From an archaeon (GTDB taxonomy: Archaea; Iainarchaeota; Iainarchaeia; Iainarchaeales; 1-14-0-10-31-34), in the NCBI GenBank assembly GCA_043819075.1, contig JBDRFE010000002.1, positions 66,253 to 130,252 on the forward strand: 64,000 nucleotides of DNA, read 5' to 3'. Positions 2 to 57,890 of this stretch are shown here, in pieces (positions within the stretch are counted from its first letter, which is position 1; the number at the start of each line of letters is the position of its first letter). A program made the position numbers and the translations under genes. Below the pieces are notes generated by a model. The model saw nothing but the letters and a program-made list of their open reading frames with translations. It made no database searches and was not told the origin of the DNA.

Positions 2-895
2 ACCGCATTCCAGCATCCTTCTCTGGTTAAACCATTTGAATTTTTCATGAATCTTTATTCTCTTCCAAAATACACTGAATTAGACCCCACGTTTCTTGTA
101 TTCATTACTTTTCCATTGTTTTTTGGATTCATGCTTGGAGACGTTGGATATGGAATAGTTACTTTGATTGCATTCTTTTTCTTAAGGGGAAAACTTAAAG
201 GTGAAGGAAAACTTTTAGTTAATTCTTTGATTGTGGCTTCTCTTGCAACAATTTTGTTTGGGTTTGTGTTCGGAGAATTTTTTGGTTTTGAGTTTGTAGA
301 GCACCCCTTGCTTAACAGGGCTCATGACCTGAATTTAATGTTAATGATTTCAATTTTAGTTGGCTTAATCCATATTACTTTCGGCTATATAATTGGCTTT
401 TATAATGTCTTAATCCAGCATGGATTAAAAGAAGCAGTTTATGAAAAAGCAAGCTGGCTTATAATTGAAGCAGGTGCATTGCTTGTTTTAGCTGAAATGA
501 TTTTAGGGTTAATTTCTTTTGGAAACATTTTAGGCGGCATAATGCTTTTTGCAGGAATTGTGTTGTTATTCAAAGGAGAAGGAGTCCAAGGCATAATTGA
601 ACTGCCTGCAATCTTAAGCAATACTTTGTCTTATGCAAGGCTTTTTGCTGTCGGATTGGCGTCAGTTCAGCTGGCATTGATAATCAATAAATTTGCAACA
701 CAGTTCTTCCATCAAGGAGGCATTTTTATTGTTGTTGCAATCCTGATCCTTTTATTAGGGCATTTAATCAATATTTTATTGGGTTTAATCGGGCCTTTCT
801 TGCATTCTTTGAGGCTTCATTACGTTGAATTTTTTGGAAAATTCTATAAAGGTGGAGGAATAAAATACGTTCCGTTTGGGATGGAAAAAAATTAA
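2..895 (+). CDS. atpI: A-type ATP synthase subunit I (membrane a-subunit), C-terminal ~290 aa; the reading frame is open to the window edge, so the gene starts upstream
   Basis: Polytopic membrane protein with the characteristic C-terminal Arg-containing helix region (LSYARLFAVGLAS); sits immediately upstream of the proteolipid gene in the archaeal atpIKECFABD order. Confidence 0.8.
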   Translation, partial: TAFQHPSLVKPFEFFMNLYSLPKYTELDPTFLVFITFPLFFGFMLGDVGYGIVTLIAFFFLRGKLKGEGKLLVNSLIVASLATILFGFVFGEFFGFEFVEHPLLNRAHDLNLMLMISILVGLIHITFGYIIGFYNVLIQHGLKEAVYEKASWLIIEAGALLVLAEMILGLISFGNILGGIMLFAGIVLLFKGEGVQGIIELPAILSNTLSYARLFAVGLASVQLALIINKFATQFFHQGGIFIVVAILILLLGHLINILLGLIGPFLHSLRLHYVEFFGKFYKGGGIKYVPFGMEKN

Positions 896-4709: not shown

Positions 4710-7700
4710 ATGAAGGAATACAAAACAATTGAAAGAATTGCCGGACCATTAATTTTTGTGAAAAAAACTGACCCAATTGGCTACGGAGAATTAGTTAAAA
4801 TAAAATTATCTGACGGAACAATAAAAAACGGCCAGGTGTTGGATACTTCAGATGACTTAGTTGTAGCACAGGTATTTGAAGGAACATCTTCTATTGACAG
4901 GCAGTCTTCAGTGAAATTCACCGGAGACACAATTAAATTAAAGGTTTCAAAAGACTTGCTTGGAAGAGTTTTATCCGGCTTAGGTGAGCCAATTGATTCT
5001 GGGCCAGAAATTATTCCTGACAAAGAATTAGATGTTGTCGGAGCAGCAATTAATCCTTTTGCAAGAAGCTCTCCAAAAGATTTTGTCCAAACAGGATTAT
5101 CAACAATTGATGCAATGAATACTTTGGTTAAAGGCCAAAAGCTTCCGATTTTTTCCGGTTCAGGTTTGCCTCACAATGACATTGCATTACAGATTGCAAG
5201 GCAGGCAAAAGTTGAAGGAAACTTTGCTGTTGTGTTTGCTGCAATGGGAATAACAAATGAAGAAGCCCAGCAGTTCCAAAGAGACTTTGAAAGAACCGGT
5301 GCACTAGAAAGAACAATAATGTTTTTGAATTTAGCTAACGACCCAGCAATTGAAAGGCTTATTACTCCGAGAATGGCTTTAACTGCAGCAGAATATTTGG
5401 CTTACACTCACGACATGCATGTTCTTGTAATTCTCACAGACATGACAAACTATTGTGTTGAAGGAAAAACTGAAATCTTTCTTAATGACGGGGAAATAAT
5501 CAACATTAAAGACTTTGTTGAATCCCAAACAAAAGGTTCTGATGTTGACATTAGGAGTAAAAATAAGTCTCTTGTTACATGGGATGGCAAAACCCATTCA
5601 ATTAAACAAATTGCAAGAGTGCAAAAACTTCCTTCTACTCAAGAGATGATTGAAGTTATAACCCGTTCAGGAAACAAGTTAACCGCTACCCCAAATCACA
5701 GAATATTATCTGATACGATTTACGGTTTAAGAATGACCAGACTTGATCAACTCAATAAAGGAAGCAAACTATGTTCTGCATCAAAAATCGACGTACAAGA
5801 AAGTGTTCCATCAGTTATAGAACTCATTGATAATAAAACAGCAGTCTTTATGGACAAAAATGTGTTGAACAAAGCCAAGCTCAAGTTAAAGAAAAAATAT
5901 GGTTCACTAATAAAAGCATGCAAAGAATTAGAAATTAATTATTCAAGAGTTACTGATTCAGAGTCTTTCCTGCAAGCAAGTGAACTTAAAAAAATCTCAA
6001 AAGATTTATCAATTGAATTAGTGAGTAGCATTAAAGCTTTATCTAATGTTGGGGGAAAAAGATTTGAAGTTTCTTTTGTTTATCCAAATAAAGAGCTGAT
6101 GTATTGTATGGGATTAGTTGCATCAGACGGTTCAGTAATTCAAAATAAAAAGAAACATATAAGAAGAGTTGATTTTTCAAACAAAAACATTCAGTTAATA
6201 AGCAATTATACTGAAAAAATGAAAAAACTGTTTCCAAACATCAACATAAAAGTATTCAAAAATCAAAACGATGTCAGTATTGCAAGAATTGAAAGCAAAC
6301 CTTTATTTGAAATGGCAAAATCTTTTGGTTTAGCAGAAAAAGATTTCAAACCAATTTTTAAACTTCCTGAAACTCTTATTGCTTCTTTCTTAAAAGGTTA
6401 CTTTGATGGGGACGGAAGCTGTAATATAAATTCAAAACTAATTAAATACACGGCAAAAGAAGAAATAGTTGTTAAAAGACTTAGACAACTTCTAAAAAGA
6501 TTGGGTATTTCTGCCACTACAATAAAACGAAAAAGTGAATCAAGTTACGGAAATTCTTTTGTATGTGATGTTGTTATTAGAGGAAGCACTTTTGTAACAA
6601 AGTTTATTGAAAGAATAGGTTCAGATCATCCTGCTAAAATGAGATTGCTTTCTATTTTAGGGAAAAAGAAAAAAAGAAGAGCTGAATTTGAACACGCTCC
6701 AAGAATATGCGGCAACCTATTAAGATTAATAAGACAGAAATACAAGATAAAACAAACAGAACTAACCAACAGTGGAAGTTTTTCAGAGATTGAAAGAGGT
6801 TTAAAAACTGTAAGTAAAGCCGAAGTTAGAAAGTATATTGCAAAACTTGATAACGTAGTTCCATTAAATGAAGAACTATTAGTTGAATTAAAAAAGCTCA
6901 CTTCAGACAACTTTATCTTAGATCAAATAATTTCAATCAAAAAATTGCCTGCAAACAACCTCTTTGTTTTTGATGTAACGGTTCCGGAAACAGGCAAGTT
7001 TTTAGTTGACACTGGCCTGATAATTTCTAATTGTGAGGCTTTAAGGGAAATTGGTGCTGCAAGAGAAGAAGTTCCTGGAAGAAGAGGTTATCCTGGTTAT
7101 ATGTACACTGACTTGGCTTCAATTTACGAAAGAGCCGGCTTGATTAAAGGAAAAAAGGGTTCAGTAACACAGATTCCAATCCTGACAATGCCAGGCGACG
7201 ATATAACTCACCCAATACCTGATTTAACTGGTTATATTACTGAAGGTCAAATCGTTTTAGGAAGAGAACTGCATATGAAAGGAGTTTATCCTCCGATTGA
7301 TGTTCTTCCATGCCTTTCACGTTTAATGAATGCAGGAATAGGCAAAAAAAACACTAGAGAAGACCATAAAGCTGTTTCAAACCAGTTGTATGCAGCTTAT
7401 GCTGAAGGCCGTTCTTTAAGGGGATTAGTTGCAATTGTAGGAGAAGAAGCCTTAAGCGAAAGAGACAGAAAGTTTTTGAAGTTTGCAGAAGAATTTGAGC
7501 AAAAATTTATTTCACAAGACAAATACGAGAACAGGACAATTTTTGAGTCACTGAATTTAGGCTGGGATTTATTGTCTGCTTTGCCTGCAACAGAATTAAC
7601 AAGAATTGATGATGAGTTAATCGCAAAATACTTGGATAAAAACAAGAGACCAGCGGAAAAAACGCCAGAGGCAAAACTTGACACTTCAAAAGAAATTTCT

Positions 7701-7802
7701 GCTCCAAAAGAAACAAAACTGATTGCAGGAAAAAACAATTCAGGAAACAAGACCAGCAAAAATAATTCAAAAAACGGAAAAAACAAAAAGAAAAAAAAGT
7801 GA
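4710..7802 (+). CDS. atpB: A-type ATP synthase subunit B containing a 526-aa intein; the host protein has an unusual ~60-aa Lys/Asn-rich C-terminal tail
   Basis: Extein sequence is contiguous across the insertion (...[11 protein letters not shown] | [29 protein letters not shown]...); the ATG at 4710 is preceded by an AGGGGTG RBS (the ORF track starts at an upstream TTG at 4680). Confidence 0.9.
5454..7031 (+). mobile_element. Intein with LAGLIDADG homing-endonuclease domain inserted in atpB
   Basis: Begins with Cys ([14 protein letters not shown]), ends ...GLIISN followed by the +1 Cys of the C-extein; LAGLIDADG-like blocks [12 protein letters not shown] and [12 protein letters not shown]; in frame with the host. 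Confidence 0.85.
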
Positions 7803-12031: not shown

Positions 12032-12891
12032 TGAAAAAAAAAGTTTTAGTAATCGGTGCAAGCGGTTTTCTTGGAACAGCTTTAATGCAAGAGCTTTCAA
12101 AAAAATTCAATGTTATTGGCACTTTTTTTGGGGAAAAAAAGCAGGGCTTGATTGAATTAGACTTAAATAATTCAGTTCAGCTGGATTCAGTCCTGAACTC
12201 TGTTTTCCCTGAATTAATTGTTTTGGCCGCAGCAGAAACAGATGTTGATGCATATGAATTAAAACCTGAAATTTCAAGAAACCAGATTATTTCAGCAAAA
12301 AAAATAGTTGAATACTGTAAAGAAAAAAATTGTTTTCTTGTTTTCATTTCAACTGACGCAGTATTTGACGGAAAAAAAGGAAACTATAATGAAACAGACG
12401 CCCCTAATCCAATCTGTGAATACGGCAGAAACAAATTATCCCTAGAAAAAATAATTTCATCACTGAAAAATTATTTGATTTTAAGAACTTCTGTTCTTTA
12501 TGGTTTGCCTCTTTCTCCTGACAAGTTTATTGGAGGAACAATTCTAAAGCTTTTAAAAAAAGAAAAAGTTTTTGTCGCAGAAGACTGGAAGAGAACTCCA
12601 ACTCTTACAACAGATCTTGCCAAAGCTTTAATTAATTTAACAGAAAAAAACCAAAAAGGATTATTTCATGCTGCAGGAAATTCAAGCCTTTCCTCTTATG
12701 AAACTGCTCTGGCAATAGCAGAGAAATTTAATGTTCCTTCATCTTTAATAGAAAAAATAAAAGGAGATGAATTAAAGCTTCCTGCAAAAAGGCCATTGGA
12801 TTCTTCTCTGAATATTTCCAAGCTTTTGTCTCTTGGAATCAGGATGAGTTCTTTTGAAGAAGGGCTTGAATTCATTCACTCTAATCTTTAG
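12031..12891 (+). CDS. dTDP-4-dehydrorhamnose reductase-like NAD(P)-dependent sugar reductase (RmlD family)
   Basis: [14 protein letters not shown] Rossmann motif, YGRNK catalytic Tyr-x3-Lys, ~286 aa. Confidence 0.65.
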
Positions 12892-15488
12892 TCTTCTATT
12901 CCGTTTTCTGTTACCCTGTAAACTGCTTCTCCGTCTGGAAGTGATGGGCTGTCAACTAATTTTGCAACTCTTTTCTCTGCTTTTGCTTTTCTTAGATACA
13001 ATCTAGTTTTGCTGTTGTGTACTATGAAACCATTTGCAATGTAATTTTCTGTTTCTGGGACACTGATGTCATATAGTGGCAGGTTGTTTTTCTGCTTTTT
13101 AATGCTTGTAACTTTCCCGAAAGAAATTTCTCTGTTCTGAATTGCTTCCATTAATGCTATTTTTTCTTTGTGTTGTTCAGGAATTTCTTTGCTTTTTATT
13201 GTGTTCAAAATCATTTTTAGTTCATGCATACCAATGTATTTGTAGTTTCTAGATTGAATTACCTTGCTTGGATATTTAACTAATTCTTTTAAGAAGCCCC
13301 AAACAACTTTTCTTTCAATTGGAACAGTAACTTTTGCCCTGTTTTCGCTGAATTCTTTTATCCATTTATCAAGTTTTTTTCTTTTATCTGGAGCACTGAC
13401 GCTAATTTCCCTTCCATATTTCACCACATCTTCACTGAATATTTCTAAAGATTGAAATTCTTTTGCTCCGTATTTCAGAATCCTAGATTTTATTCCAAAC
13501 CTTAGCAACAGCATTTGAATTATTTGCAGTATTTCCTTGTCTTTTTGTCCGATACTAATCCTTCTAATGCTTTTGTCAATATGCCCTTCTGCATCAACAA
13601 ATCCTTTAATGAATGCTTTGACAACAGGTTTTGGCGACTGTGTGATTAATGGGATATAATTTTTTTTAATGTAAGAAAACAATTCCCTTATTTCTTTACT
13701 GTTCACACTTAACTGCCAGCAATTTTTGTCTTTAACTTTAGAAAATTTTCCCTCCATATTAAAGACGCTTTTGAACAGTTTTTCATAAGTCTCCAGAACT
13801 TCTTTTCTTGCATCTTTAAACCTTAAACTTCTTTGCTCAAGATTTCCATCACCTAAAAAATAACCAGTCGTTTGTGCAAGTTCTTCAGAGAATGTTTCCG
13901 GAACAGTTAATGGTCTGTGCCTGTAATTTAAAGCAGGTTGTGTTTCTTCTATTATTTCTTCTGCAATTCCTTCATCAAACCCTAAACCAAAAATGCTGTT
14001 CATGTTTTCCATTGAAATTGGTCTGCTTTCATTCAAAGATCTTCTTAAAGACCTTTTATCAAAAGGCATTTCTTCACAAAACTGTTCTCTGGTAAAACCC
14101 CTGTTTTTAATAGTGTTTTTTATTAGTTCAGCGCCTTTCTTGTTGACAATCAAGAATTCTTTTAATTGCATTTTCGGAATTTCTTGTTCACTACTTTCAA
14201 TTTCTATTTTTCCTGCCTGCAACAAGTAGTCATTTTTCTTGATATCTTTTGCTTTTACTTCCCTGACTTCAAATCCATTTAACTTAAAGAATTTGTGGTT
14301 TGGAGAAGCGTTAATTTGATGCCCTGTATCAATTAAATAGCTTTCTTTTATGTCATCTCTTTTTGATTTGCATGAAACAACTGAAACTTTTCCTTTTAAT
14401 TCCTTAAAGTCGGTTGAACAAACAGTTTTTTCTGCGAACTCTTTTATTTTGGTGATCTGCCCATTGCCTGTTTGAATTAATGTATTTGGGTCAAGACAGG
14501 CGTGCCCAACCACATGGCCTCCAATTGGCGCAGTGGGGTCGCCGAATAAAATGTCTGGCCTGGACATTACCTGGTTTGTAACCAGCAAAGCAATGTTGTT
14601 CATTTCAGCTAATTTCATTAAAGTATGCATGTGCTTGTTTAGTTTTTGCTGCCTTCCTGCAAGAGTTCCTCGGCCAATGAATTCTGCCCTGAATTGAGAT
14701 GTTAAGGAATCAACTATTACCAGCTTGATGTTATTGCTTTTAATCATGTCTTCTGCTTTGTCAGCCAAAACCATTTGGTGGTCTGAGTTAAAGGCTCTTG
14801 CAACAAAAATGTTTTTCAAAACTTTTTTTTCATCTAAGCCAAAATGTTTTGCAATGCTTATCACTCTTTCTGGCCTGAAAGAATTCTCTGAATCAATGTA
14901 TAAAACATTTCCATTCAAGCCTCCTTTTTCTTTTGGCAGCTGGGTTGTAACGCATAACTGAAAACACCATTGGGTTTTTCCTGACGCATACTGGCCGTAC
15001 ACTTCTGTAATGCTTTGGGTTTCAATTCCTCCGCCGATTAAGTCATCTAATTCTTTTGAGCCAGTGGTAATTCTTCCGATAATAAGCCTTCTTTCCTGTA
15101 TTTTGTCTGCTGTCTCGTAACCCATTTCAAGTGATTCTCTTGCAGCATTAATTGCTTTTGTTGCAGTTATTTCGCCTAAACCAGCGGCTTCCATTAATTC
15201 TGCTGGAGAAGCAACAGCAATGTTTTCCATTGTCTTGTATCCTGCGCCGATTAATTTTTCAGCTGAAGTTGTTCCAACCCCGGGCAAATCTGAAATGCTT
15301 TTGTATTTTTTTCCTCTGGATTTTTTTTCTTCTGGTTCAGTTGTTTCTTCTTCTGAAGAATCAGTTATTTCTTGTGTTTTGTTTGTTGTTTCTTCAATTG
15401 CTTCTGTTTCTGTTGTGGTTTTGTTTTTCGCCATGATTTCATCTCCTGCATCAAGTTTTTTCAGGCTGTTGTTCTCGGCTGAACTCAC
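12888..15488 (-). CDS. radA: DNA repair and recombination protein RadA, containing a 495-aa intein; acidic/Thr-rich N-terminal extension
   Basis: HhH domain ([18 protein letters not shown]), Walker A (GQYASGKTQ), ...[10 protein letters not shown] | intein | [23 protein letters not shown]...; an alternative start at ATG 15434 (MAKNK...) is possible. Confidence 0.9.
13014..14498 (-). mobile_element. Intein with LAGLIDADG homing endonuclease inserted in radA
   Basis: Starts [13 protein letters not shown], ends ...NGFIVHN followed by the Ser +1 of the C-extein; LAGLIDADG-like blocks [11 protein letters not shown] and [11 protein letters not shown]. Confidence 0.85.
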
Positions 15489-23567: not shown

Positions 23568-23627
23568 TTAATCACTTAAAGTTTAGGTAAAAATCTTATT
23601 ATTAATTTTATTGTATTAAATGCTTTT

Positions 23628-24437
23628 ATGCCTAGGCCTGTGAAGAAAAGAAAGTTAGTTGGTGGAAGAAAACCTTCTTCAAGAACGCCTTTGCTTAGAA
23701 GCCTCCCGGCCAAAAAACCTAAAGCGTATTCACCTCCAACCAAGATGCTTTCTTTGCTTAAAAAAACTCTTTCTGATTGGAGTTCTTTGAAGTTTAGTGA
23801 TTTTAAGTCTTTTTCTTTGCTGTCAGAAAACCAGACTATTTTTTTGTGGGGCAGGCAGCACCCACTAAGAAAAGAGTTTATTTTTGGCAAAGGGCTCGCA
23901 CATCCTTTAGTTTCGCTTTTGGTTGCAAACAAAATTGTTGTTGAAAGAAATAAAACTTTAAAACAAATTGCAATAGAAGCATCTGAAATTCTTTCAAAGC
24001 GCTTTCATAGGCCTTTTAAGTTAAGTGAAAATTTTGTGAATTTAGTTAACAAAATTTTTCGGTTAAGGTCGCGTGAAGAACTGCAAAGAAAAGGAAAATG
24101 GGGCGGGGCAAGAGAAGAATTGTCTGATGCTATGAGAGCATCAATTATTAATGACTTAAAAACTTCTCGCTTGTCAATAAAAAAAATTGCAGAAAAATGT
24201 GGTGTTTCTTGGTTTTCAGTGTATTCACTTGGTGTTAATGAAGAAATCATAAAACCCAAACTAAACGAAAAGAGAGGTGTTAGGGTTCCTTTGGAAAAAG
24301 AAGCTCTTATCAGAAAACTCATTGAACAAGGAGAGCTGAATGATAAGCAGATAGCAGAACAAGCTGGCGTAAGCCATTATACAGTTTATATAAAAAGAAC
24401 AGGAAAAAACTATTACAAGCGCGCATCTTCTGCCTGA
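23628..24437 (+). CDS. Basic protein with two C-terminal helix-turn-helix repeats, function unknown
   Basis: Duplicated IAEKCGVSWFSVYS / IAEQAGVSHYTVYI HTH-like units; basic N-terminus; start uncertain. Confidence 0.4.
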   Translation: MPRPVKKRKLVGGRKPSSRTPLLRSLPAKKPKAYSPPTKMLSLLKKTLSDWSSLKFSDFKSFSLLSENQTIFLWGRQHPLRKEFIFGKGLAHPLVSLLVANKIVVERNKTLKQIAIEASEILSKRFHRPFKLSENFVNLVNKIFRLRSREELQRKGKWGGAREELSDAMRASIINDLKTSRLSIKKIAEKCGVSWFSVYSLGVNEEIIKPKLNEKRGVRVPLEKEALIRKLIEQGELNDKQIAEQAGVSHYTVYIKRTGKNYYKRASSA

Positions 24438-24478
24438 TTAAACATTTATTATTAATTTATTCCTTATAAAGTTAATTC

Positions 24479-30891: not shown

Positions 30892-31323
30892 TTATTTTTT
30901 AAATGATTTTTCTGCCTGGGTTATCATCTGGCCTAATGCATTAAGGTTTGCATAGCTTGCTCTCTGCACTTTTTCCAGTTGCTCAAGCTTTTCAATTGTT
31001 TCTTTTTCTCTTTGCTCTATTTCTTCTATTGCCGCAGAGGTTTCTTTTTCTATTATCACGCCTCCGGCCCTGCTTGACTTTACTTTAGTGCTTTTGTCAA
31101 CTAATACATCCAGATAAACTCCTGCACCCAGTGAAACCATTGCTTTTTCGCCTTTCTTTGTTTTTTTTATTGCATTAAGGCTTTCTTTTGCAAACAATAT
31201 TTCTTCCAGAATAGCCTGGACTGAATTAATGCCTCTGTTTGTTTCTTCTAATCTCATTTTTTCCTGTGCAAAAGCAGTCATTATCTGGTTTCCGCTTAAT
31301 ACAACTGATTTTTCTTCTGCCAT
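30892..31323 (-). CDS. pfdA: Prefoldin alpha subunit
   Basis: Coiled-coil / beta-hairpin (VSLGAGVYLDVLV) / coiled-coil architecture; conserved position between rplLX and ftsY. Confidence 0.7.
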   Translation of the reverse strand: MAEEKSVVLSGNQIMTAFAQEKMRLEETNRGINSVQAILEEILFAKESLNAIKKTKKGEKAMVSLGAGVYLDVLVDKSTKVKSSRAGGVIIEKETSAAIEEIEQREKETIEKLEQLEKVQRASYANLNALGQMITQAEKSFKK

Positions 31324-31514
31324 TATTTCACCTTCACTTCTTTTACTTCAATTATTTCAATTAAATTTCTTTTAAGCTTGTTTTTTGAGCCGAACAGGCT
31401 GAAAACCTGTTCTATTGCAGTGTTTTCATTCAATGAATTAACTGTTTTAGAAAAGTTTTTTTCCATTTTCTTGCTTTTTATTTTTCCCTGTACTTCAAAT
31501 AATTTTTTTTCCAT
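31323..31514 (-). CDS. 50S ribosomal protein LX (L18Ae/L20A family)
   Basis: [13 protein letters not shown]...[32 protein letters not shown] resembles the LX family; conserved LX-pfdA-ftsY linkage. Confidence 0.55.
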
Positions 31515-31519
31515 GTTTA
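31493..31519. repeat. 27-bp direct repeat, copy 1 (cttcaaataattttttttccatgttta); identical copy at 31673-31699
   Basis: Exact 27/27 identity, 180 bp apart, flanking element A; includes the rplLX ATG and first 7 codons. Confidence 0.85.
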
Positions 31520-31672
31520 TTCCCCCTCAACCGTCACGCTCGGTTGGTGTGCGTGCACTATCTTCGCTTTTGCTCGATAGAGCTTGCACGGCTTTACACC
31601 GTGCTGTGCTTTTACAGAAGGACTGAGCGCAAGCGAATGTCGTTCTCTGGTGCCAGCTGACAGTGGCAGCTG
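31520..31672 (-). repeat. GC-rich hairpin element (copy A) inserted between a perfect 27-bp direct repeat that duplicates the rplLX start region
   Basis: 153 nt at ~58% GC in a ~30% GC genome; contains GCACGG-TGTAAAG-CCGTGC and CCAACCG-AGCGTGA-CGGTTGG hairpins shared with copies B, C and D. Confidence 0.6.
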
Positions 31673-31699
31673 CTTCAAATAATTTTTTTTCCATGTTTA
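31673..31699. repeat. 27-bp direct repeat, copy 2
   Basis: See copy 1. Confidence 0.85.
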
Positions 31700-33013: not shown

Positions 33014-33036
33014 ACCCTTTTTTTTTGAATAATGTT

Positions 33037-33354
33037 TTATTTTCTTTTAATGCTTATTTCTCTTTTTGCTGACAACTGCTCTAACAGTTTTTTGAGTTCT
33101 TTTTCCTGGACTTTTCCCTGCACTTTTCCTGTCTTATAAAGGTAGATAAGGCTTTGTGCTGCCTTCAAATATAATTCCCTGTTAACCAGCCTTACATTTG
33201 ACAGCCTTGCTCTTGCTTCTTCTGCCAGAACAAGCTTCATTGCAGAGTCAATCTGGTTCTCTAATTCAATCTGCCTTTCCTGCTGTTTTATTTCTTCAGA
33301 ATACCTTTCTTTCAGCTCATTTGCTTTTTTTTCCTTTATCTCTTCTGGGTTCAT
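33037..33354 (-). CDS. PDCD5/TFAR19-like double-stranded DNA-binding protein
   Basis: LAEEARARLSNVRLVNRELYLKAAQSLIYL matches the dsDNA-binding-domain family; conserved position between rps19e and rpl39e; the ORF track extends to 33417, a probable ATG is at 33354. Confidence 0.6.
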   Translation of the reverse strand: MNPEEIKEKKANELKERYSEEIKQQERQIELENQIDSAMKLVLAEEARARLSNVRLVNRELYLKAAQSLIYLYKTGKVQGKVQEKELKKLLEQLSAKREISIKRK

Positions 33355-33979: not shown

Positions 33980-34471
33980 TTATTCCTTGCGTTTTTGGGC
34001 TGTTTTTTCAAGCAGTTTTTTTTCAACTGTTTCTGGCACGAACTCTTTTACCCTGCCTTTCAGTGAAACAATTTCTTTTATAAGAGTGGAGTTAATGTAA
34101 AAGTATTTTGGCTCTGTCATTAAAAAAACTGTTTCAATGTTTTCATTCAAGCCTTTATTGACTGTTGACTGCTGGAATTCGTATTCAAAATCGCTTATTG
34201 CCCTTAACCCTCTGATAACAAACCTGTAATTTTTTTGTTTCATGTACTCTGCAAGCAATCCATGCAATACTTCAATTTTAATGTTCTTTTTTTTGCTGAA
34301 CAGCTCTTCAAGCATTTGCTTTCTTTCTTCTAAAGAAAACCAGTTTTTTTTTCTCTTGTTTTCTGCAACCAATACAATTACTTCATCAAACAGTTTTTCT
34401 GCCCTAGAAATTATGTCCATGTGCCCGAATGTAACTGGGTCAAAGCTTCCTGCATAAATCCCTGTTTTCAT
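33980..34471 (-). CDS. coaD: Phosphopantetheine adenylyltransferase, bacterial CoaD type
   Basis: GIYAGSFDPVTFGHMDIISRA closely matches bacterial CoaD ([20 protein letters not shown]). Confidence 0.85.
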   Translation of the reverse strand: MKTGIYAGSFDPVTFGHMDIISRAEKLFDEVIVLVAENKRKKNWFSLEERKQMLEELFSKKKNIKIEVLHGLLAEYMKQKNYRFVIRGLRAISDFEYEFQQSTVNKGLNENIETVFLMTEPKYFYINSTLIKEIVSLKGRVKEFVPETVEKKLLEKTAQKRKE

Positions 34472-35355
34472 TTAATTTCGCCTTTAATTTTATTGCTTAA
34501 ATCATTAATTTTTTCCTGCAATTCCTTTAAAGTTCCATTGTTTTCAACCAAAAAATCGGCTTTCTTTTTTTTCCTTCCTGCAGGCAGCTGGTTTTTTAAT
34601 CTCTTTAAAACCTCTTCTTTTTGCATTCCAAGCTTTTCTTTTCTTTCAATCATTTTATCTTTTTTTGAATAAATCACTAAGATCTTGTCGCATAAATCCT
34701 GCATTCCTGATTCAAACAATAAAGGAATTTCTATTGCAACAAGTTTTTCTCCTCTGGCTTCTTCTTCAAGTTTTTTTCTCACTAAAGGATGAATTAACTC
34801 ATTTAATTCAGCTAATTTTTTCCTGTTATTAAAAACAATTTTTGCGATTTTCTGGAATTCAATTCCATGTTTTGAAACAGCTTCTATTCCAATTATTTCT
34901 TTTAACTCTTCTTTTACTTTCAGCATTTCTTTTTTGGCTATTGTATCTGCATTCAATGCTTTGAAGCCGTTTGATTCAAATTCTTTTAATACAGTGCTTT
35001 TTCCTGTTCCAATGCTTCCAGTAATGCCTAACACAATGCATTCCTTTTTTTTCTCCGGAAAAACTTTTTTTATTTTCCCGCAGTTTTTGCATTTAACCAG
35101 CAAAACCTTGTTTTTTATTCTCACTTCTTTGTCTTTGCTTTCAAGCAATAAAGAAAAACATTTTTTGCAGTAAAGTTTTTTCAGTTCTTTTGGAATTTTT
35201 ACTTTATTCCTCATCCCGATTTTTTTCATTAACTTTAAGTAATCCAAACTTCTTTCAGGATGTTTTTCCCATTCAATTAAAGCAAGGTCCATTAGCCTGT
35301 ACATTCTCTGCAATGCAATGTCTTCAATGAACTTCCTGTTATTTTTTTGCTTCAT
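34468..35355 (-). CDS. Fusion protein: N-terminal RNase P subunit Rpp21/Rpr2 zinc-ribbon domain plus C-terminal dephospho-CoA kinase (bacterial CoaE type)
   Basis: Residues ~1-105: KVKIPKELKKLYCKKCFSLLL...VKCKNCGKI aligns with archaeal Rpp21 ([23 protein letters not shown]...CLECGH); residues ~110-295: VLGITGSIGTGKSTV P-loop and CoaE-like lid; a single uninterrupted 295-aa frame. Confidence 0.7.
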   Translation of the reverse strand: MKQKNNRKFIEDIALQRMYRLMDLALIEWEKHPERSLDYLKLMKKIGMRNKVKIPKELKKLYCKKCFSLLLESKDKEVRIKNKVLLVKCKNCGKIKKVFPEKKKECIVLGITGSIGTGKSTVLKEFESNGFKALNADTIAKKEMLKVKEELKEIIGIEAVSKHGIEFQKIAKIVFNNRKKLAELNELIHPLVRKKLEEEARGEKLVAIEIPLLFESGMQDLCDKILVIYSKKDKMIERKEKLGMQKEEVLKRLKNQLPAGRKKKKADFLVENNGTLKELQEKINDLSNKIKGEIK

Positions 35356-35444
35356 AAAAGAATTAGTGGTTTAATTACTATAAATTAATAACCTATGCAA
35401 AGCATAGGTTGACATTTTTCGGCACTCACGCTCGAAAGCGTGAA

Positions 35445-35515
35445 TGCGCCCACCGGGAATCGAACCCGGACATTGAGCTTGGAAGGCTCACGTCATACCA
35501 CTAGACTATGGACGC
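35445..35515 (-). tRNA. tRNA-Gly (anticodon TCC)
   Basis: GCGTCCATAGTCTAGTGGTATGACGTGAGCCTTCCAAGCTCAATGTCCGGGTTCGATTCCCGGTGGGCGCA: 7-bp acceptor stem, TTCGATT T-loop, anticodon loop CTTCCAA. Confidence 0.9.
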
Positions 35516-35650
35516 AAACGTTTCGCCGTTTGAGCACGAAGCACTATCTTCGCTTTTGGCTCGATAGAGCTTGCACGGCTTTATGCCGTGCTTCGTACCG
35601 CACAGCCGAAACTGTGCCGAGCTTGCTTCGCCAATTGTGCAGACTAATTA
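35516..35650 (-). repeat. GC-rich hairpin element (copy B), immediately 5' of tRNA-Gly(TCC)
   Basis: ~50 nt nearly identical to copy A (AGCACGGCATAAAGCCGTGCAAGCTCTATCGAGCCAAAAGCGAAGATAGTGC); ~58% GC. Confidence 0.6.
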
Positions 35651-35779
35651 CTGTAATAAAAAGTTATTAAACTTTATTTTTTTTGTTTAACACAGAAATA
35701 CTGTTTTAGTCAGCACAAATTAATAACCAATTACAAAGTAATTGGTTGATGTTTTTCGTTTCTCGCGGGCGAAACCGCG

Positions 35780-35925
35780 ATGCGAAGCACATACGGCTTT
35801 ATGCCGCAGCCGTCACGTTCGGCTGGTGTACGCGTACCACGTAAAGTGGTGCTAGCACGGCTTTATGCCGTGCGCCGTCACACTCGCACGGAAGCGAGTC
35901 GGTGCTCGCGCTCGAAGCGCGACGA
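35780..35925 (-). repeat. GC-rich hairpin element (copy C), immediately 3' of tRNA-Gly(GCC)
   Basis: ~95% identical over ~150 nt to the element 3' of tRNA-Arg (copy D), apart from a 56-nt indel. Confidence 0.65.
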
Positions 35926-36145
35926 TGCGACTGCCGGGAATCGAACCCGAGTCCGAAGCTTACTGCACAACTTTTTTAAAAGTTGTATCAAAATGTACGG
36001 CATAAAGCCGTACTGTACTAAAACAATAAGTTTTTGCAAAGCAAAAACCGTTTTTGTTAAACCTTTTTTTGAAAAAGGTTTTTTTGATCAAACTTTTGGA
36101 AAAGTTTGTTGGCAAGCTCCAATTCTACCACTGAACCACAGTCGC
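35926..36145 (-). tRNA. tRNA-Gly (anticodon GCC) interrupted by a ~149-nt intron in the anticodon loop (canonical 37/38 region; intron about 35961-36109)
   Basis: 5' exon GCGACTGTGGTTCAGTGGTAGAATTGGAGCTTGCCA, 3' exon AGCTTCGGACTCGGGTTCGATTCCCGGCAGTCGCA: perfect 7-bp acceptor pairing, GTTC/GAAT D-stem, GGAGC/GCTTC anticodon stem; the intron is AT-rich with palindromic hairpins including GTACGGCATAAAGCCGTAC. Confidence 0.8.
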
Positions 36146-36336
36146 GTAAATAATGATTGAATAGAAATAGTTTTTAAAACTGGGGTTTTTCATCAAATTT
36201 AACCCATTTGTTTTTGCTTGGCTCTAAAGAGATTTTAGAGCATGAAGGGCACTGCCATACTTCAACTTCTTCTTCCCCTCTATGCTCTGTTCTCTGAAGC
36301 AACATTATTGAGCCGCATCTAAGGCATTTCATGCAA

Positions 36337-36733: not shown

Positions 36734-36805
36734 TTGGGCTCGGGCGGAATCGAACCGCCAGTCTCGACCGTGTAAGGGTCGCATCATACCACTAGACCAC
36801 GAGCC
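36734..36805 (-). tRNA. tRNA-Val (anticodon TAC)
   Basis: GGGCTCGTGGTCTAGTGGTATGATGCGACCCTTACACGGTCGAGACTGGCGGTTCGATTCCGCCCGAGCCCA: perfect acceptor stem, anticodon loop CTTACAC. Confidence 0.85.
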
Positions 36806-36927
36806 CCGCCTTTTCCAAAAGGCAGGTTGCAACTTAATTCCAAAAAGGAATTAAGTGCACACTAAAACCAAAAGTTTTAGTGGTGCCAAAACGCACGGCG
36901 TAAACCCGTGCTGGCACTGTTTTTTAT

Positions 36928-38292: not shown

Positions 38293-38384
38293 TAAATAAT
38301 CACCTTTTTATAATTTTGTTTTTTTTAATTTCAGTATGGCCTTGTGCCATACTTTTTGTTACACCTTTTGGAAAAGGTGTAGAA

Positions 38385-39745: not shown

Positions 39746-39891
39746 ATTCCCTTGCTTTTAGTTGAATTTTTAACCAACTTTTTTTAGGGTTCTGTCAAGA
39801 ACTCAGTTGATTTCTTGGTTTTTGGTATTTTTGTTAAGTGGCAGTTGATTTTGCAAAGTTTTATAAATAATAAATTCACATTATTTATTTA

Positions 39892-40302
39892 ATGACAAGA
39901 AAAAATAGTTTTAACAGATTTTCTTCGGGCACGAGAAAACACTTGCGTCGTATTAAAGCAACTCCAACTCAACGTGCAAAGGCTCGTGAGCAAGAGTTAA
40001 GAAAACGATTTTTAAAAGTGGTGCAAAACGGCCAAGTTCGTTTTAAAGATGTGGAACAAGTAATCAAACTTAAGCTTAATGGTGTGAAAAGCCCTGCTTT
40101 TAAACGAAAAATTTTAACGCAACTTTTTATGGAATATACCAAATACATGTATAAATTAGGGCGAGATGTAGCTAAGGCAAAAAGAGCATTGGATGCTGGC
40201 AATGGAACACTTGGTAATCTTCAAACATTAGCTGGGTTAGAGATTGCCGCCAGAAAAGCAAAAAATAAAATTGGGCAAAGAATAGATTATTTAAAGAAAT
40301 GA
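39892..40302 (+). CDS. Hypothetical basic protein (atypical codon usage)
   Basis: 136 aa, pI clearly basic, CGT-type Arg codons; not recognised. Confidence 0.45.
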   Translation: MTRKNSFNRFSSGTRKHLRRIKATPTQRAKAREQELRKRFLKVVQNGQVRFKDVEQVIKLKLNGVKSPAFKRKILTQLFMEYTKYMYKLGRDVAKAKRALDAGNGTLGNLQTLAGLEIAARKAKNKIGQRIDYLKK

Positions 40303-40797
40303 TAAAAGAACAAGTTTCAACTCATTGCTTTTTCTGCAACAGCTTTTTTTATTAAGCTTATTCATTTGTTTTTTCCTAACTCTAATTTTATTCCTGTTTT
40401 TTGGGATGGAGTTAGCCATAAGGCTTGGTTTGGGTGGATGAAATTATGTTATGTGCGGTAATCTCTTGTGTGTTTTAAGGATATTGAAAGAATTTTAGCA
40501 TAAAAACACTTTGTTTTTTTAGTTGAATCTTTGCTTTTTTTTCCTGAAAAGCATTGATTTAAAAGCACTTTTTTACCTAATTTTTAGTGCTGTTTTGCGA
40601 ATGAATGTGATTTTTTTAAAGTGGTTTGAATGCAGGTTTTAATGGAAGAATTAATCAGTAAAATTGACTTTTTGTCAAGCAAAGAAAAAGGCATTCGAAA
40701 CAAGATTTTATTGGAAAAAGCTAAAACTAACCTGCAGGAATACAATAAAACAAAAAACCAGATACTGGAATAGTTTTTTTTGTTTACTTTTTTTTTT

Positions 40798-57565: not shown

Positions 57566-57639
57566 GGACTCGTGGCGCAACCGGACAGCGCAATCCGCTT
57601 CGGACGGATAGGTTGGGGGTTCGAATCCCCTCGAGTTCA
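57566..57639 (+). tRNA. tRNA-Arg (anticodon TCG)
   Basis: GGACTCGTGGCGCAACCGGACAGCGCAATCCGCTTCGGACGGATAGGTTGGGGGTTCGAATCCCCTCGAGTTCA: cloverleaf with TTCGAAT T-loop, anticodon loop CTTCGGA. Confidence 0.9.
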
Positions 57640-57890
57640 TTCGCGCTTTCGAGCGCGAGCACCGACTCGCTTCCGTGCGAGTGTGACGGCGCACGGCTTT
57701 CAGCCGAGCATGCTTCGCTTTCGCGGTTCCGTCCGCGAGCAACGGAGCACGGCATAAAGCCGTGCTAGCACCACTTTACGTGGTGCGCGTACACCAGCCG
57801 AACGTGACGGCTGCGGCATAAAGCCGTATGTGCTTCGCTTTCGTGATTTCGCTTGCGGGTGTAGAGCGATATATCAAGTTATTTCGTTTC
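57640..57890 (+). repeat. GC-rich hairpin element (copy D) immediately 3' of tRNA-Arg
   Basis: ~250 nt at ~58% GC; homologous to copy C (3' of tRNA-Gly-GCC) with a 56-nt indel flanked by a GCACGGC direct repeat; hairpins GCGC-TTTCGA-GCGC, GCACGGC-ATAAA-GCCGTGC, CAGCCG-AACGTGA-CGGCTG. Confidence 0.65.

Follow-up and report, generated by a model that had tools for sequence, protein, structure and literature searches.

Palindromic multi-hairpin elements in tRNA leaders, trailers and introns of DPANN archaea: a probable family of mosaic mobile DNA

What kind of sequence forms short GC-rich islands directly beside the tRNA genes of an otherwise AT-rich archaeal genome? This question is raised by a stretch of 64,000 nucleotides (nt) from a DPANN archaeon of the lineage Iainarchaeota (assembly GCA_043819075.1, contig JBDRFE010000002.1, positions 66,253 to 130,252), which is referred to as the window and has a GC content of 34.5%. 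An initial annotation had described four such islands, here called elements A to D, and had offered three explanations, namely an undescribed structured non-coding RNA (ncRNA), a family of processing signals, or a small non-autonomous mobile element. The islands could be confirmed together with their coordinates and motifs, and the mobile element fits best, whereas the structured ncRNA and the processing-signal family are disfavored. We think that the islands probably belong to a non-autonomous, palindromic and mosaic mobile DNA family of small non-coding multi-hairpin elements, which reside in the leaders, trailers and introns of DPANN tRNA genes. Its units are gained, lost, duplicated and recombined in genomes of Iainarchaeota and Micrarchaeota. 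The family has apparently not been described before; a literature search found no description of such hairpins in DPANN.

The islands have about 52-63% GC, with a fraction of 0.556 in A (31520-31672), 0.515 in B (35517-35650), 0.62 in C and 0.58-0.61 in D. Three of them adjoin tRNA genes, as had been noted: B touches G1 of tRNA-Gly(TCC) (35444-35516, minus strand), C begins 3 nt past the discriminator of tRNA-Gly(GCC) (35926-36145, minus strand), and D begins 1 nt past the discriminator of tRNA-Arg(TCG) (57566-57639, plus strand). The TCC and TCG genes and a tRNA-Val gene (36735-36806, minus strand) are called by both ARAGORN and Rfam. For comparison, a contig that is ~99.7% identical to the window was available (locus L111, contig JBDRTA010000015.1 of GCA_043824355.1), and orthologous sites were taken from four syntenic relatives (L122, L124, L125 and L126), whose eIF6 proteins are 70-77% identical to that of the window, and from the companion loci L129-L132. 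The closest relatives are labeled Candidatus Diapherotrites, Iainarchaeum or Micrarchaeota. All sequences are metagenome-assembled genomes (MAGs) or metagenome contigs, and the sampled loci, numbered with the prefix L, are few and were picked by one hairpin pattern or by synteny around tRNAs. As the phylogeny of the relatives is not settled, the direction of gain versus loss is uncertain at some sites.

A grammar of hairpin modules

All four islands are composed from one grammar of GC-rich hairpin modules. Class I hairpins have a 7-bp stem (G-Y-N-C-N-N-N) and the loop RTAAA, which reads TTTAY on the opposite strand. Class II hairpins have a 6-bp stem and the loop TTYCGN and are followed by an 8-nt tail, GNNNCGRG, and class III hairpins have a CARCYG stem with the loop TCACNNT. 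Two further modules possess longer loops, module IV (CWGGAC-TGAGCGCAGCGAATG-TCSTGC) and module V (CTATC-TTCGCTTCGCTC-GATAG). The canonical unit of ~92 nt has the order II or III, tail, I, TAG, I', tail', II' or III'. Its right half-unit is the inverted left half with respect to loops and tails, and the stems of the two halves are unrelated. Because of these inverted halves the unit has a pseudo two-fold symmetry and reads alike on both strands at the motif level. Between copies the stems vary freely yet remain Watson-Crick paired, and the loops, the tails and the central TAG are constant. Family members range from half-units (~45 nt) over full units to mosaics of up to ~230 nt.

Of the islands, C contains a canonical unit in its core and D in its second part. 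Element C (35760-35925, minus strand), which forms the 3' trailer of tRNA-Gly-GCC, comprises an extra class II hairpin, the canonical unit (core 35807-35899) and a partial right half-unit that ends in a class II hairpin at 35763-35780. Element D, the 3' trailer of tRNA-Arg (57640-57870, plus strand), contains two class II hairpins, a first partial unit (57665-57711), the canonical unit (57721-57813; 98.5% identity to C) and, at its end, a half-unit whose class II hairpin (57841-57858) is rich in G-U pairs. In A and B, module V takes the place of I', and A additionally has module IV. Element B, the 5' leader of tRNA-Gly-TCC on the minus strand, has the order II (GCACAG-TTTCGG-CTGTGC), tail, I (GCACGGC-ATAAA-GCCGTGC), AAG, V, tail', II' (CAAACG-GCGAAA-CGTTTG), and the final G of its II' hairpin is G1 of the tRNA. 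On the minus strand, A starts with the end hairpin CAGCTG-CCACTGT-CAGCTG, module IV and the class I hairpin GCACGGT-GTAAA-GCCGTGC, and continues with AAG, module V (CTATC...GATAG), a tail and the end hairpin CAACCG-AGCGTGA-CGGTTG. The 51/52-nt block that A and B were said to have in common is present, and every hairpin variant named in the initial annotation exists. Stems of the same sequence also occur with inverted loops (ATAAA vs TTTAT).

Related hairpins are also found at further tRNA flanks of the window and in a tRNA intron. The trailer module of tRNA-Gly-TCC (35372-35443, minus strand) starts 1 nt past the discriminator with a class II hairpin (TCACGC-TTTCGA-GCGTGA), which is followed by the tail, an A-rich run, an AT-rich hairpin and GGTTATTAATTT. 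The leader of tRNA-Val (36807-36911, minus strand) has a class I-like hairpin at 36893-36911 and AT-rich hairpins up to G1 of the tRNA. The intron of tRNA-Gly-GCC (35960-36108, minus strand; GC 0.30) is an array of hairpins rich in AT, one of which belongs to class I (GTACGGC/GCCGTAC, 35995-36013).

The AT-rich module behind class II hairpins is itself recurrent. It consists of AAAAAC-N-TCAACC, an AT-rich hairpin of 5-6 bp and the TATA-like GGTTATTAATTT, and it is found in the window at 35698-35760 and 35372-35425, in L050 at ~230-283, in L122 at 6475-6545, and in L125 at 6184-6260 and 6432-6500. It follows some tRNAs and is missing behind their orthologues, and it possibly also serves the next gene as a promoter.

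The pairing is far beyond chance. When hairpins were first chosen by loop motif and GC-rich arms only, with pairing ignored, RTAAA loops gave 16 distinct fully paired sequences (0.38 expected) and TTYCGN loops 17 (0.67 expected), and both classes have more than a dozen different stems each. The hairpin pattern matches ten times in the window, compared with zero matches in 100 shuffles. Nine canonical units from the window, L021, L029, L120, L121, L122, L125 and L126, which represent at least five genomes, were aligned over 97 columns. In this alignment the share of paired cells is 96.6%, both sides have changed in 18 of the 26 pairs, and a one-sided change is found in no pair. None of 500 shuffled controls reached these values, and sliding the partners by 1-3 columns lowers the pairing to 20-38%. 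The covariation that had been noticed in the islands thus holds with more copies aligned; it is strong and goes beyond what four copies could show, but RNA is not singled out by it. The stems are free to change in sequence as long as they pair, and the conserved positions are those of the unpaired loops, of the tails and of the centre; what is selected is therefore likely a hairpin or cruciform recognized by a structure-specific protein.

A covariance model built from the nine units (R1), the E-values of which are rough, scores nearly equally on both strands, with 94.9 and 94.5 bits for the unit of L021 and 99.7 and 85.3 bits for D. Also the folding z-scores are similar for both strands of each island; the unit of L121 folds with its ends paired together (z = -6.05). 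G-U intermediates are absent from the nine-unit alignment. In slightly imperfect stems beside tRNAs, the transcribed strand shows five G-U and five A-C mismatches, which is no bias and too few to decide. The orientation of units relative to the tRNA goes both ways, as the intron copies of the window and of L051 are oriented oppositely to that of L117.

With filters off, R1 recovered A (31528-31626, E=8e-8), B (35515-35617, 72 bits), C (91.8 bits) and D (two matches, the better one with the 99.7 bits given above) in the 64-kb window, and also the intron of tRNA-Gly-GCC (35968-36053, E=4e-6), the two tRNA-Gly trailers and the tRNA-Val leader. One further weak site lies at 38298-38380, and no sites besides these were found. 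Besides the four islands, the model thus matches further sites in the window, and units of this grammar are also present in other genomes of Iainarchaeota and Micrarchaeota.

The impression that the islands do not resemble RNase P, signal recognition particle (SRP), 5S, C/D or H/ACA RNAs is borne out, as they have no Rfam match; this also holds for Hgc RNAs, ribozymes and group II intron domains. At gathering scores, Rfam finds in the 64 kb three tRNAs and no other family. In a permissive search of 35300-36300, islands B and C had no significant match. They gave only STnc300 over part of C (20.7 bits, gathering score 80, E = 5.2), the tail of a tmRNA_permuted match centered on the 3' exon of tRNA-Gly-GCC, and Plastid-ycf2, which matches antisense and ends at 35515; the remaining matches are at chance level and lie in the AT-rich intron or over the tRNA itself. 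A CRISPR array was considered and dismissed, as no regular repeat-spacer family was found in the window, and readings as group II intron or C/D small RNA (sRNA) lack the defining features. That the elements are a family of trans-acting small RNAs, or of guide RNAs co-transcribed with tRNAs in the manner of dicistronic tRNA-sRNA transcripts, is hardly credible. Such a function would suit GC-rich islands in an AT-rich genome, and the islands lie between promoter-like AT boxes and the tRNA, so that judging by position they are transcribed with the tRNAs. It is at odds with the missing Rfam match, which includes the C/D and H/ACA families, with the occurrence in both orientations, the variable presence and the mosaic composition, and a conserved single-stranded segment resembling a guide is not seen. 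More generally, the symmetry of both strands, the lack of G-U intermediates and the dispensability that is described below count against both a gene for a dedicated RNA and a processing signal that is essential.

An insertion, empty sites and shared modules

Element A is an insertion with a 27-nt target duplication. The 153 nt of A sit exactly between perfect 27-nt direct repeats, which the initial annotation had missed, at 31493-31519 (CTTCAAATAATTTTTTTTCCATGTTTA on the plus strand) and 31673-31699. They lie at the junction of the genes for eIF6 and ribosomal protein LX (31323-31514, minus strand), where A is inserted after LX codon 8; the proximal repeat bears the working LX start, and the distal repeat bears the eIF6 stop and a second ATG. 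The distance from the eIF6 stop to the LX start is 182 nt in the window, compared with 1-3 nt in L122, L124, L125 and L126, and this gap corresponds to A plus an extra copy of the 27-nt stretch that holds the eIF6 stop and the first eight LX codons. In the four relatives the stretch is single-copy and the site is empty. Beyond the 27-nt repeat, similarity runs ~19 nt further at ~70%. An assembly artifact is unlikely as the source of the repeat, because L111 and L112 carry it independently. The upstream copy of the ATG opens an open reading frame (ORF) of 55 codons through A; this ORF terminates 13 nt ahead of the genuine start of LX, so that translation of LX could still take place.

The site of A is not the only one that differs between relatives. 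C is missing from the tRNA-Gly-GCC trailer in all four of them; L122 and L125 have one class II hairpin, an A-rich run and an AT-rich hairpin at this position, L126 has a hairpin and ~50 nt, and L124 has nothing. The trailer module of tRNA-Gly-TCC is also found behind a tRNA in L050 and L125, and it is missing after tRNA-Gly-TCC in L122, L124 and L126. Behind tRNA-Arg, the 231-nt trailer of the window is matched in L129 by 125 nt that are homologous to the first part of D and in L132 by a decayed remnant of ~55 nt, whereas L130 has no element and L131 a plain T-run. In L122, L125, L126 and L021, one canonical unit exactly fills the interval from 2 nt behind the DnaG stop to G1 of tRNA-Val, each time with different stems; the window has an AT-rich hairpin array in this interval, and L124 has no element. 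As orthologous tRNAs thus occur without any element, the distribution fits poorly with a discrete structured ncRNA gene or with a processing signal that is essential.

The one relative without GC-rich elements (L124 with its companion locus L131) carries introns at sites where the others lack them, namely a 55-nt intron in tRNA-Gly-TCC (L124 6685-6812) and a 12-nt intron in tRNA-Arg-TCG (L131), which is mislabeled as selenocysteine (SeC) tRNA by ARAGORN.

Elsewhere the family was found in a tRNA-Val leader (L021) and in trailers of tRNA-Leu and tRNA-Pro (L029/L118 and L121). Units form all or most of the intron in tRNA-Asn (L051), in a tRNA with a 141-nt intron at position 37/38 (L117) and in tRNA-Gly-GCC of L122, one unit is the spacer between two tRNAs (L116), and units or half-units lie between protein genes in L120, L098 and L050. 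About half of the independent pattern hits are associated with tRNAs, an enrichment that applies to loci chosen by pattern and is not a genome-wide rate. When the 19-nt hairpin pattern was searched across a genome collection, ~8 of 110 loci belonged to DPANN, and the rest were mostly chance matches in GC-rich bacteria.

Modules are shared between sites that are not orthologous. C and D are 22 kb apart and match at 134 of 136 aligned bases; the near-identity reported earlier stands, and only its figure of ~95% was too low. They differ by a single 56-nt gap with GCACGGC at its bounds, as described before. Over 45 positions, the left half of B and the L125 tRNA-Val leader agree in 42, and two of the three differences form a compensatory pair. 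An identical 29-nt end module occurs in the tRNA-Val leader of L122 and in the tRNA-Asn intron of L051, and an identical 66-nt block lies beside tRNA-Leu in L029 and beside tRNA-Pro in L121, where the left modules differ. These patterns suggest a copy-and-paste descent of units across loci. Together with the gains and losses they characterize a dynamic, recombining repeat family and not a fixed functional RNA.

An alternative is that replication template switching makes and maintains the hairpins in place, and that their likeness reflects a common mutational process and not transposition. Template switching can indeed yield perfect stems, one-step "compensatory" changes of several bases and inverted loops (PMC8794818, PMC8604942), which agrees with the complete lack of one-sided changes and with the hairpins that have the same stem around inverted loops. 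It cannot account for the identity of C and D or for identical blocks of 29-66 nt at unrelated sites, nor does it explain the conserved loops and tails or the target duplication of A. As the origin of the family template switching is very improbable, and it is more plausible as a process that maintains the stems.

Some further observations concern rearrangements at the elements. In the ENA contig L112 (1300-1420, compared with 35806-36099 of the window), the 5' exon of tRNA-Gly-GCC is directly joined to a half-unit (CAACTG-TTCGCC-CAGTTG...GCACGGCATAAAGCCGT) that is fused to the end of element C, and the 3' exon is missing. The two sequences are 79% identical upstream of the junction and 99.5% downstream, and the junction either is an assembly chimera at a repeated hairpin or arose in the genome by deletion or recombination between two hairpins of class I. 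In L029 (6367-6463, the same as L118 4-100), three tandem 39-nt repeats lie beside tRNA-Ser-GGA, each of which holds a class I-type hairpin, GTACGGG-TTTAT-CCCGTAC.

Taken together, the target duplication of A, the presence and absence at tRNA flanks, the near-identical C and D and the modules at non-orthologous sites are the reasons for which we favor a mobile family.

Position at tRNA genes and possible modes of movement

The abutment to tRNA genes is exact. On the 5' side, the outer hairpin typically ends at G1 of the tRNA and often pairs G1 as its last base, and on the 3' side it starts 0-3 nt past the discriminator. Introns with copies at position 37/38 are found in tRNA-Gly-GCC of the window, L051, L117 and L122. 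The tRNA-Gly-GCC of the window, which is overlooked by default tools, is a genuine gene with a 5' exon at 36145-36109, an intron of 149 nt at 36108-35960 and a 3' exon at 35959-35926. The matching exons are called tRNA-Gly(gcc) in four relatives, where the introns have 53-85 nt, and this comparison refutes the label "tRNA-Cys(aca)" that ARAGORN assigns when introns are allowed. As had been suspected, the GC-rich ORFs at 35440-35670 and 35780-36160 are spurious and lie antisense over the tRNA genes.

This precise position favors the main rival explanation, according to which the hairpins are cis-acting structures of the pre-tRNA. They would be selected in leaders, trailers and introns, where they might guard primary transcripts against exonucleases, prevent mispairing of the AT-rich flanks with the tRNA or aid termination or processing. 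Hairpins at 0-3 nt from the mature ends occur in many tRNAs and genomes, the covariation is strong, and class II loops read U-UNCG-N on one strand. UNCG is a family of tetraloops that stabilize RNA. In L069 a unit (625-717) follows the RNase P RNA gene (231-613, 103 bits with Rfam) within about 40 nt, so that the association reaches another stable RNA gene besides tRNAs. Finally, a unit of conserved architecture occupies the entire interval from DnaG to tRNA-Val in four genomes. Against this stand L124 and L131, which between them lack an element beside tRNA-Val, tRNA-Gly-GCC, tRNA-Gly-TCC and tRNA-Arg, and L130, which has none after tRNA-Arg. Also the two orientations relative to the tRNA, the like scores of both strands under R1, the zero one-sided changes with G-U equal to A-C on the transcribed strand, and copies away from any RNA gene (A, L120, L098 and L050) do not agree with a structure that acts on the transcript. 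We consider this explanation unlikely as an account of the family, but some copies may have been co-opted for function.

A different explanation starts from the fact that tRNA genes are targets of archaeal integrative elements (PMC3293823). The islands could be integrase scars, i.e., attachment (att) sites and remnants of plasmids or viruses that once integrated in tRNA genes and were later mostly deleted. A class II hairpin and its 8-nt tail together equal a T-arm plus 3' acceptor strand in size, repeats of 16-27 nt flank three strain-specific insertions of the window, and in L029 an orphan tRNA 3' fragment is present at the far end of a unit. This fragment (220-245, minus strand) comprises T-loop, T-stem and acceptor strand (TTCAAATCCTTCACTCCGCA); the unit follows tRNA-Leu-GAG, and the fragment does not match the 3' end of that adjacent tRNA (14/20). 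No duplicated 3' end of a tRNA flanks C or D, and as GTGCTTCGC is the same at the far ends of C and D beside different tRNAs, it belongs to the element. Moreover, units also fill introns and lie directly before tRNA 5' ends, no part of the islands is matched by the Rfam tRNA model, an integrase gene is missing from the 64 kb, and the viral and plasmid collections hold no copy. Integrase scars therefore appear quite improbable.

Returning to a mobile family of hairpin units, the following mode of spread can be proposed. In hairpin or cruciform DNA, the unpaired motifs that are constant on the variable stems might be recognized by a trans-acting, structure-specific DNA enzyme, in the manner of REP/RAYT or IS200/IS605 systems. 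Insertion at a staggered break, or template switching, would generate new copies such as A. Ectopic recombination between modules in common could spread them further and give rise to the nested and tandem forms of C and D. Replication template switching may keep the stems perfect and flip the loops (PMC8794818, PMC8604942). Copies would persist in transcription units of stable RNAs, where RNase P, RNase Z and the splicing endonuclease could excise them from the transcript; in gene-dense genomes, tRNA and stable-RNA sites may be nearly the only places that tolerate 100-200 extra bases. Landing at position 37/38 would create or enlarge a tRNA intron.

A more specific version of this proposal is doubtful, but it would explain the positions directly. 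The elements could be delivered to the precise cut sites of tRNA maturation, i.e., before nucleotide 1, after the discriminator and at 37/38, by a structure-guided DNA enzyme that reads the hairpins of tRNA genes or through an RNA intermediate that is joined at processing ends. They would then continue to supply archaeal tRNA genes with new introns and long leaders, and possibly give rise to split tRNA genes.

Several points weigh against a mobile family. A clean target duplication is present at one insertion only, A, and with 27 nt it is far longer than usual for transposases. C and D have no convincing duplication; an apparent repeat around them, formed by GCTTCGCA and a class II hairpin, was rejected as a target duplication, as it belongs to the element or to the original trailer. 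A transposase, an integrase, an HUH/Y1 enzyme or a reverse transcriptase was not found to be encoded in the 64 kb by Pfam scans. Neither the window nor ~26 kb per relative contains a gene for a REP-associated tyrosine transposase (RAYT, of the Y1/HUH type), and an autonomous element with the same ends as the units was not found in the sequence examined. No copy was found in collections of viruses, plasmids or phages: of two scans of a viral collection, one gave only chance matches in a contig of 62% GC and the second none, and a BLAST search of D against plasmids and phages gave no match. The exact abutment to tRNA ends is explained by tolerance, and thus only after the fact, and the identical architecture that fills the gap between DnaG and tRNA-Val in four genomes could equally reflect long-term selection for a function. 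Finally, the evidence comes from metagenomic sequence and from few loci, which were partly chosen around tRNAs.

Other segments of the window and its relatives are also variable between strains. An 828-nt segment (23613-24438) is missing from L111 and has imperfect, TATA-like direct repeats of 25 nt at its flanks. It holds an ORF (23628-24437, plus strand) for a 269-aa protein with tandem helix-turn-helix (HTH) domains, which lacks a catalytic domain and has homologues (34% identity) at other loci in L124 and L126. Its likeness to HTH domains of transposases and to Cbp1, a protein that binds CRISPR repeats, is weak and below threshold. The segment appears to be a mobile single-gene cassette. 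The multi-HTH gene was rejected as a transposase for the hairpin units, as it has HTH domains only, without a catalytic domain, and lacks hairpin ends; a homologue is present in L124, yet 26 kb of L124 contain no GC-rich elements. A second segment found only in the window (39786-40533, 748 nt) has a 16-nt direct repeat with one mismatch at its flanks and an ORF (39892-40302, plus strand) for a basic 136-aa protein without family match. All three strain-specific insertions that were examined, i.e., these two segments and element A, thus have flanking repeats of 16-27 nt. Conversely, L111 (9207-9331), L112 and L113 have an AT-rich multi-hairpin segment of ~124 nt where the window has only "aacattattc" (33030-33037), downstream of the gene for a dsDNA-binding protein (PF01984) and just upstream of an L39e-like gene. 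In inverted orientation it matches the window's tRNA-Val leader (36817-36891) with 96% identity, and it looks like a second, AT-rich family of hairpin elements that is polymorphic between strains.

The genes around the elements are those of a conserved archaeal cluster (L31e, eIF6, LX, prefoldin, FtsY, SRP54), near which DnaG and an Rpr2-CoaE gene are found in the window. The latter (34468-35355, minus strand) encodes an Rpr2/Rpp21 RNase P protein domain fused to dephospho-CoA kinase (CoaE), is located directly downstream of the tRNA-Gly pair, and keeps this fusion in all four relatives. Further away, the genes for RadA recombinase and for the catalytic subunit of an A/V-type ATPase contain one intein each with a LAGLIDADG homing-endonuclease domain; the two intein-bearing genes lie at 12888-15434 (minus strand) and 4710-7802 (plus strand).

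How archaeal tRNA genes came to have introns, long flanks and splits is a long-standing open question. As one family is found as tRNA intron, leader and trailer and as a fresh insertion in a protein gene, with empty sites in close relatives, intron gain by insertion becomes testable in nature. On the practical side, the elements account for spurious GC-rich ORF calls, for missed intron-bearing tRNAs and for probable assembly chimeras in DPANN MAGs.

Comparison with known systems

Several known classes of small elements resemble the family in part. Miniature inverted-repeat transposable elements (MITEs) are likewise small and non-coding, with target duplication and insertion polymorphism, and they are bounded by terminal inverted repeats. 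Here, the ends are inverted in loop orientation and tail motif, whereas the stem sequences differ, and a parent insertion sequence was not found. The target duplication is seen at A alone, and its 27 nt are unusually long compared with 2-10 nt in typical MITEs. Elements derived from IS200/IS605 share hairpins with conserved flanking bases as the likely recognition feature, but that family makes no target duplication, its end hairpins are like-oriented and not inverted, and neither TnpA nor TnpB was seen in the window.

With archaeal tRNA introns, the units share the canonical position 37/38, and the introns of L117, L051 and L122 consist mostly or entirely of them. In Caldiarchaeum, tRNA intron gain has been proposed to result from a mobile element (PMC3293823); that element has 1.8 kb and encodes a recombinase, whereas the arrays described here are non-coding, have 45-170 nt and also occur outside the tRNA body. 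The fold predicted for a unit on its own has irregularities of 1 nt, and a 3-4-3 motif is not obvious in it, although a dedicated scan for bulge-helix-bulge motifs was not run.

The closest analogues are bacterial REPINs and bacterial interspersed mosaic elements (BIMEs) and the palindromic GC clusters of yeast mitochondria. REP (repetitive extragenic palindromic), BIME and REPIN elements are mobilized by RAYT Y1 transposases. Like the units described here, they are short, dispersed, non-coding palindromes that form hairpins and are arranged in mosaics, and their structure is read together with few conserved bases, as is proposed for the units. A REPIN is an inverted doublet of ~100 nt (PMC3116915, PMC3337134), and the canonical unit with its two inverted half-units is such a doublet. 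The differences are in the details: the GTAG/CGTC head of REP elements (PMC3733652) is not found here, the feet correspond to the tails GNNNCGRG, (C)TAG is constant in the centre, a unit is made up of four separate hairpins with stems that differ between copies, the sites are tRNA ends and introns instead of generic intergenic sites, one duplication of 27 nt is present, the host is a DPANN archaeon, and no RAYT or HUH gene was seen in the 64 kb of the window.

The mitochondrial GC clusters are GC-rich palindromes in an AT-rich genome with rapid turnover, merger and shuffling and an unknown enzyme (PMC4478555). Like the archaeal elements, they are sporadic and differ by indels between close relatives, their units merge and shuffle, and they are transcribed with their neighbors (PMC4478555). 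In the GC42 clusters the stems are conserved and the loops vary, whereas here the reverse is true, with variation in 18 of the 26 stem pairs. The putative duplication there is 2-3 nt (AG), in contrast to 27 nt here, and the strong tie to tRNA ends and introns is particular to the archaeal family. With these elements, the class of palindromic "junk" DNA that is represented by REPINs and mitochondrial GC clusters would be extended to the ultra-small genomes of DPANN archaea, which have been thought to be streamlined.

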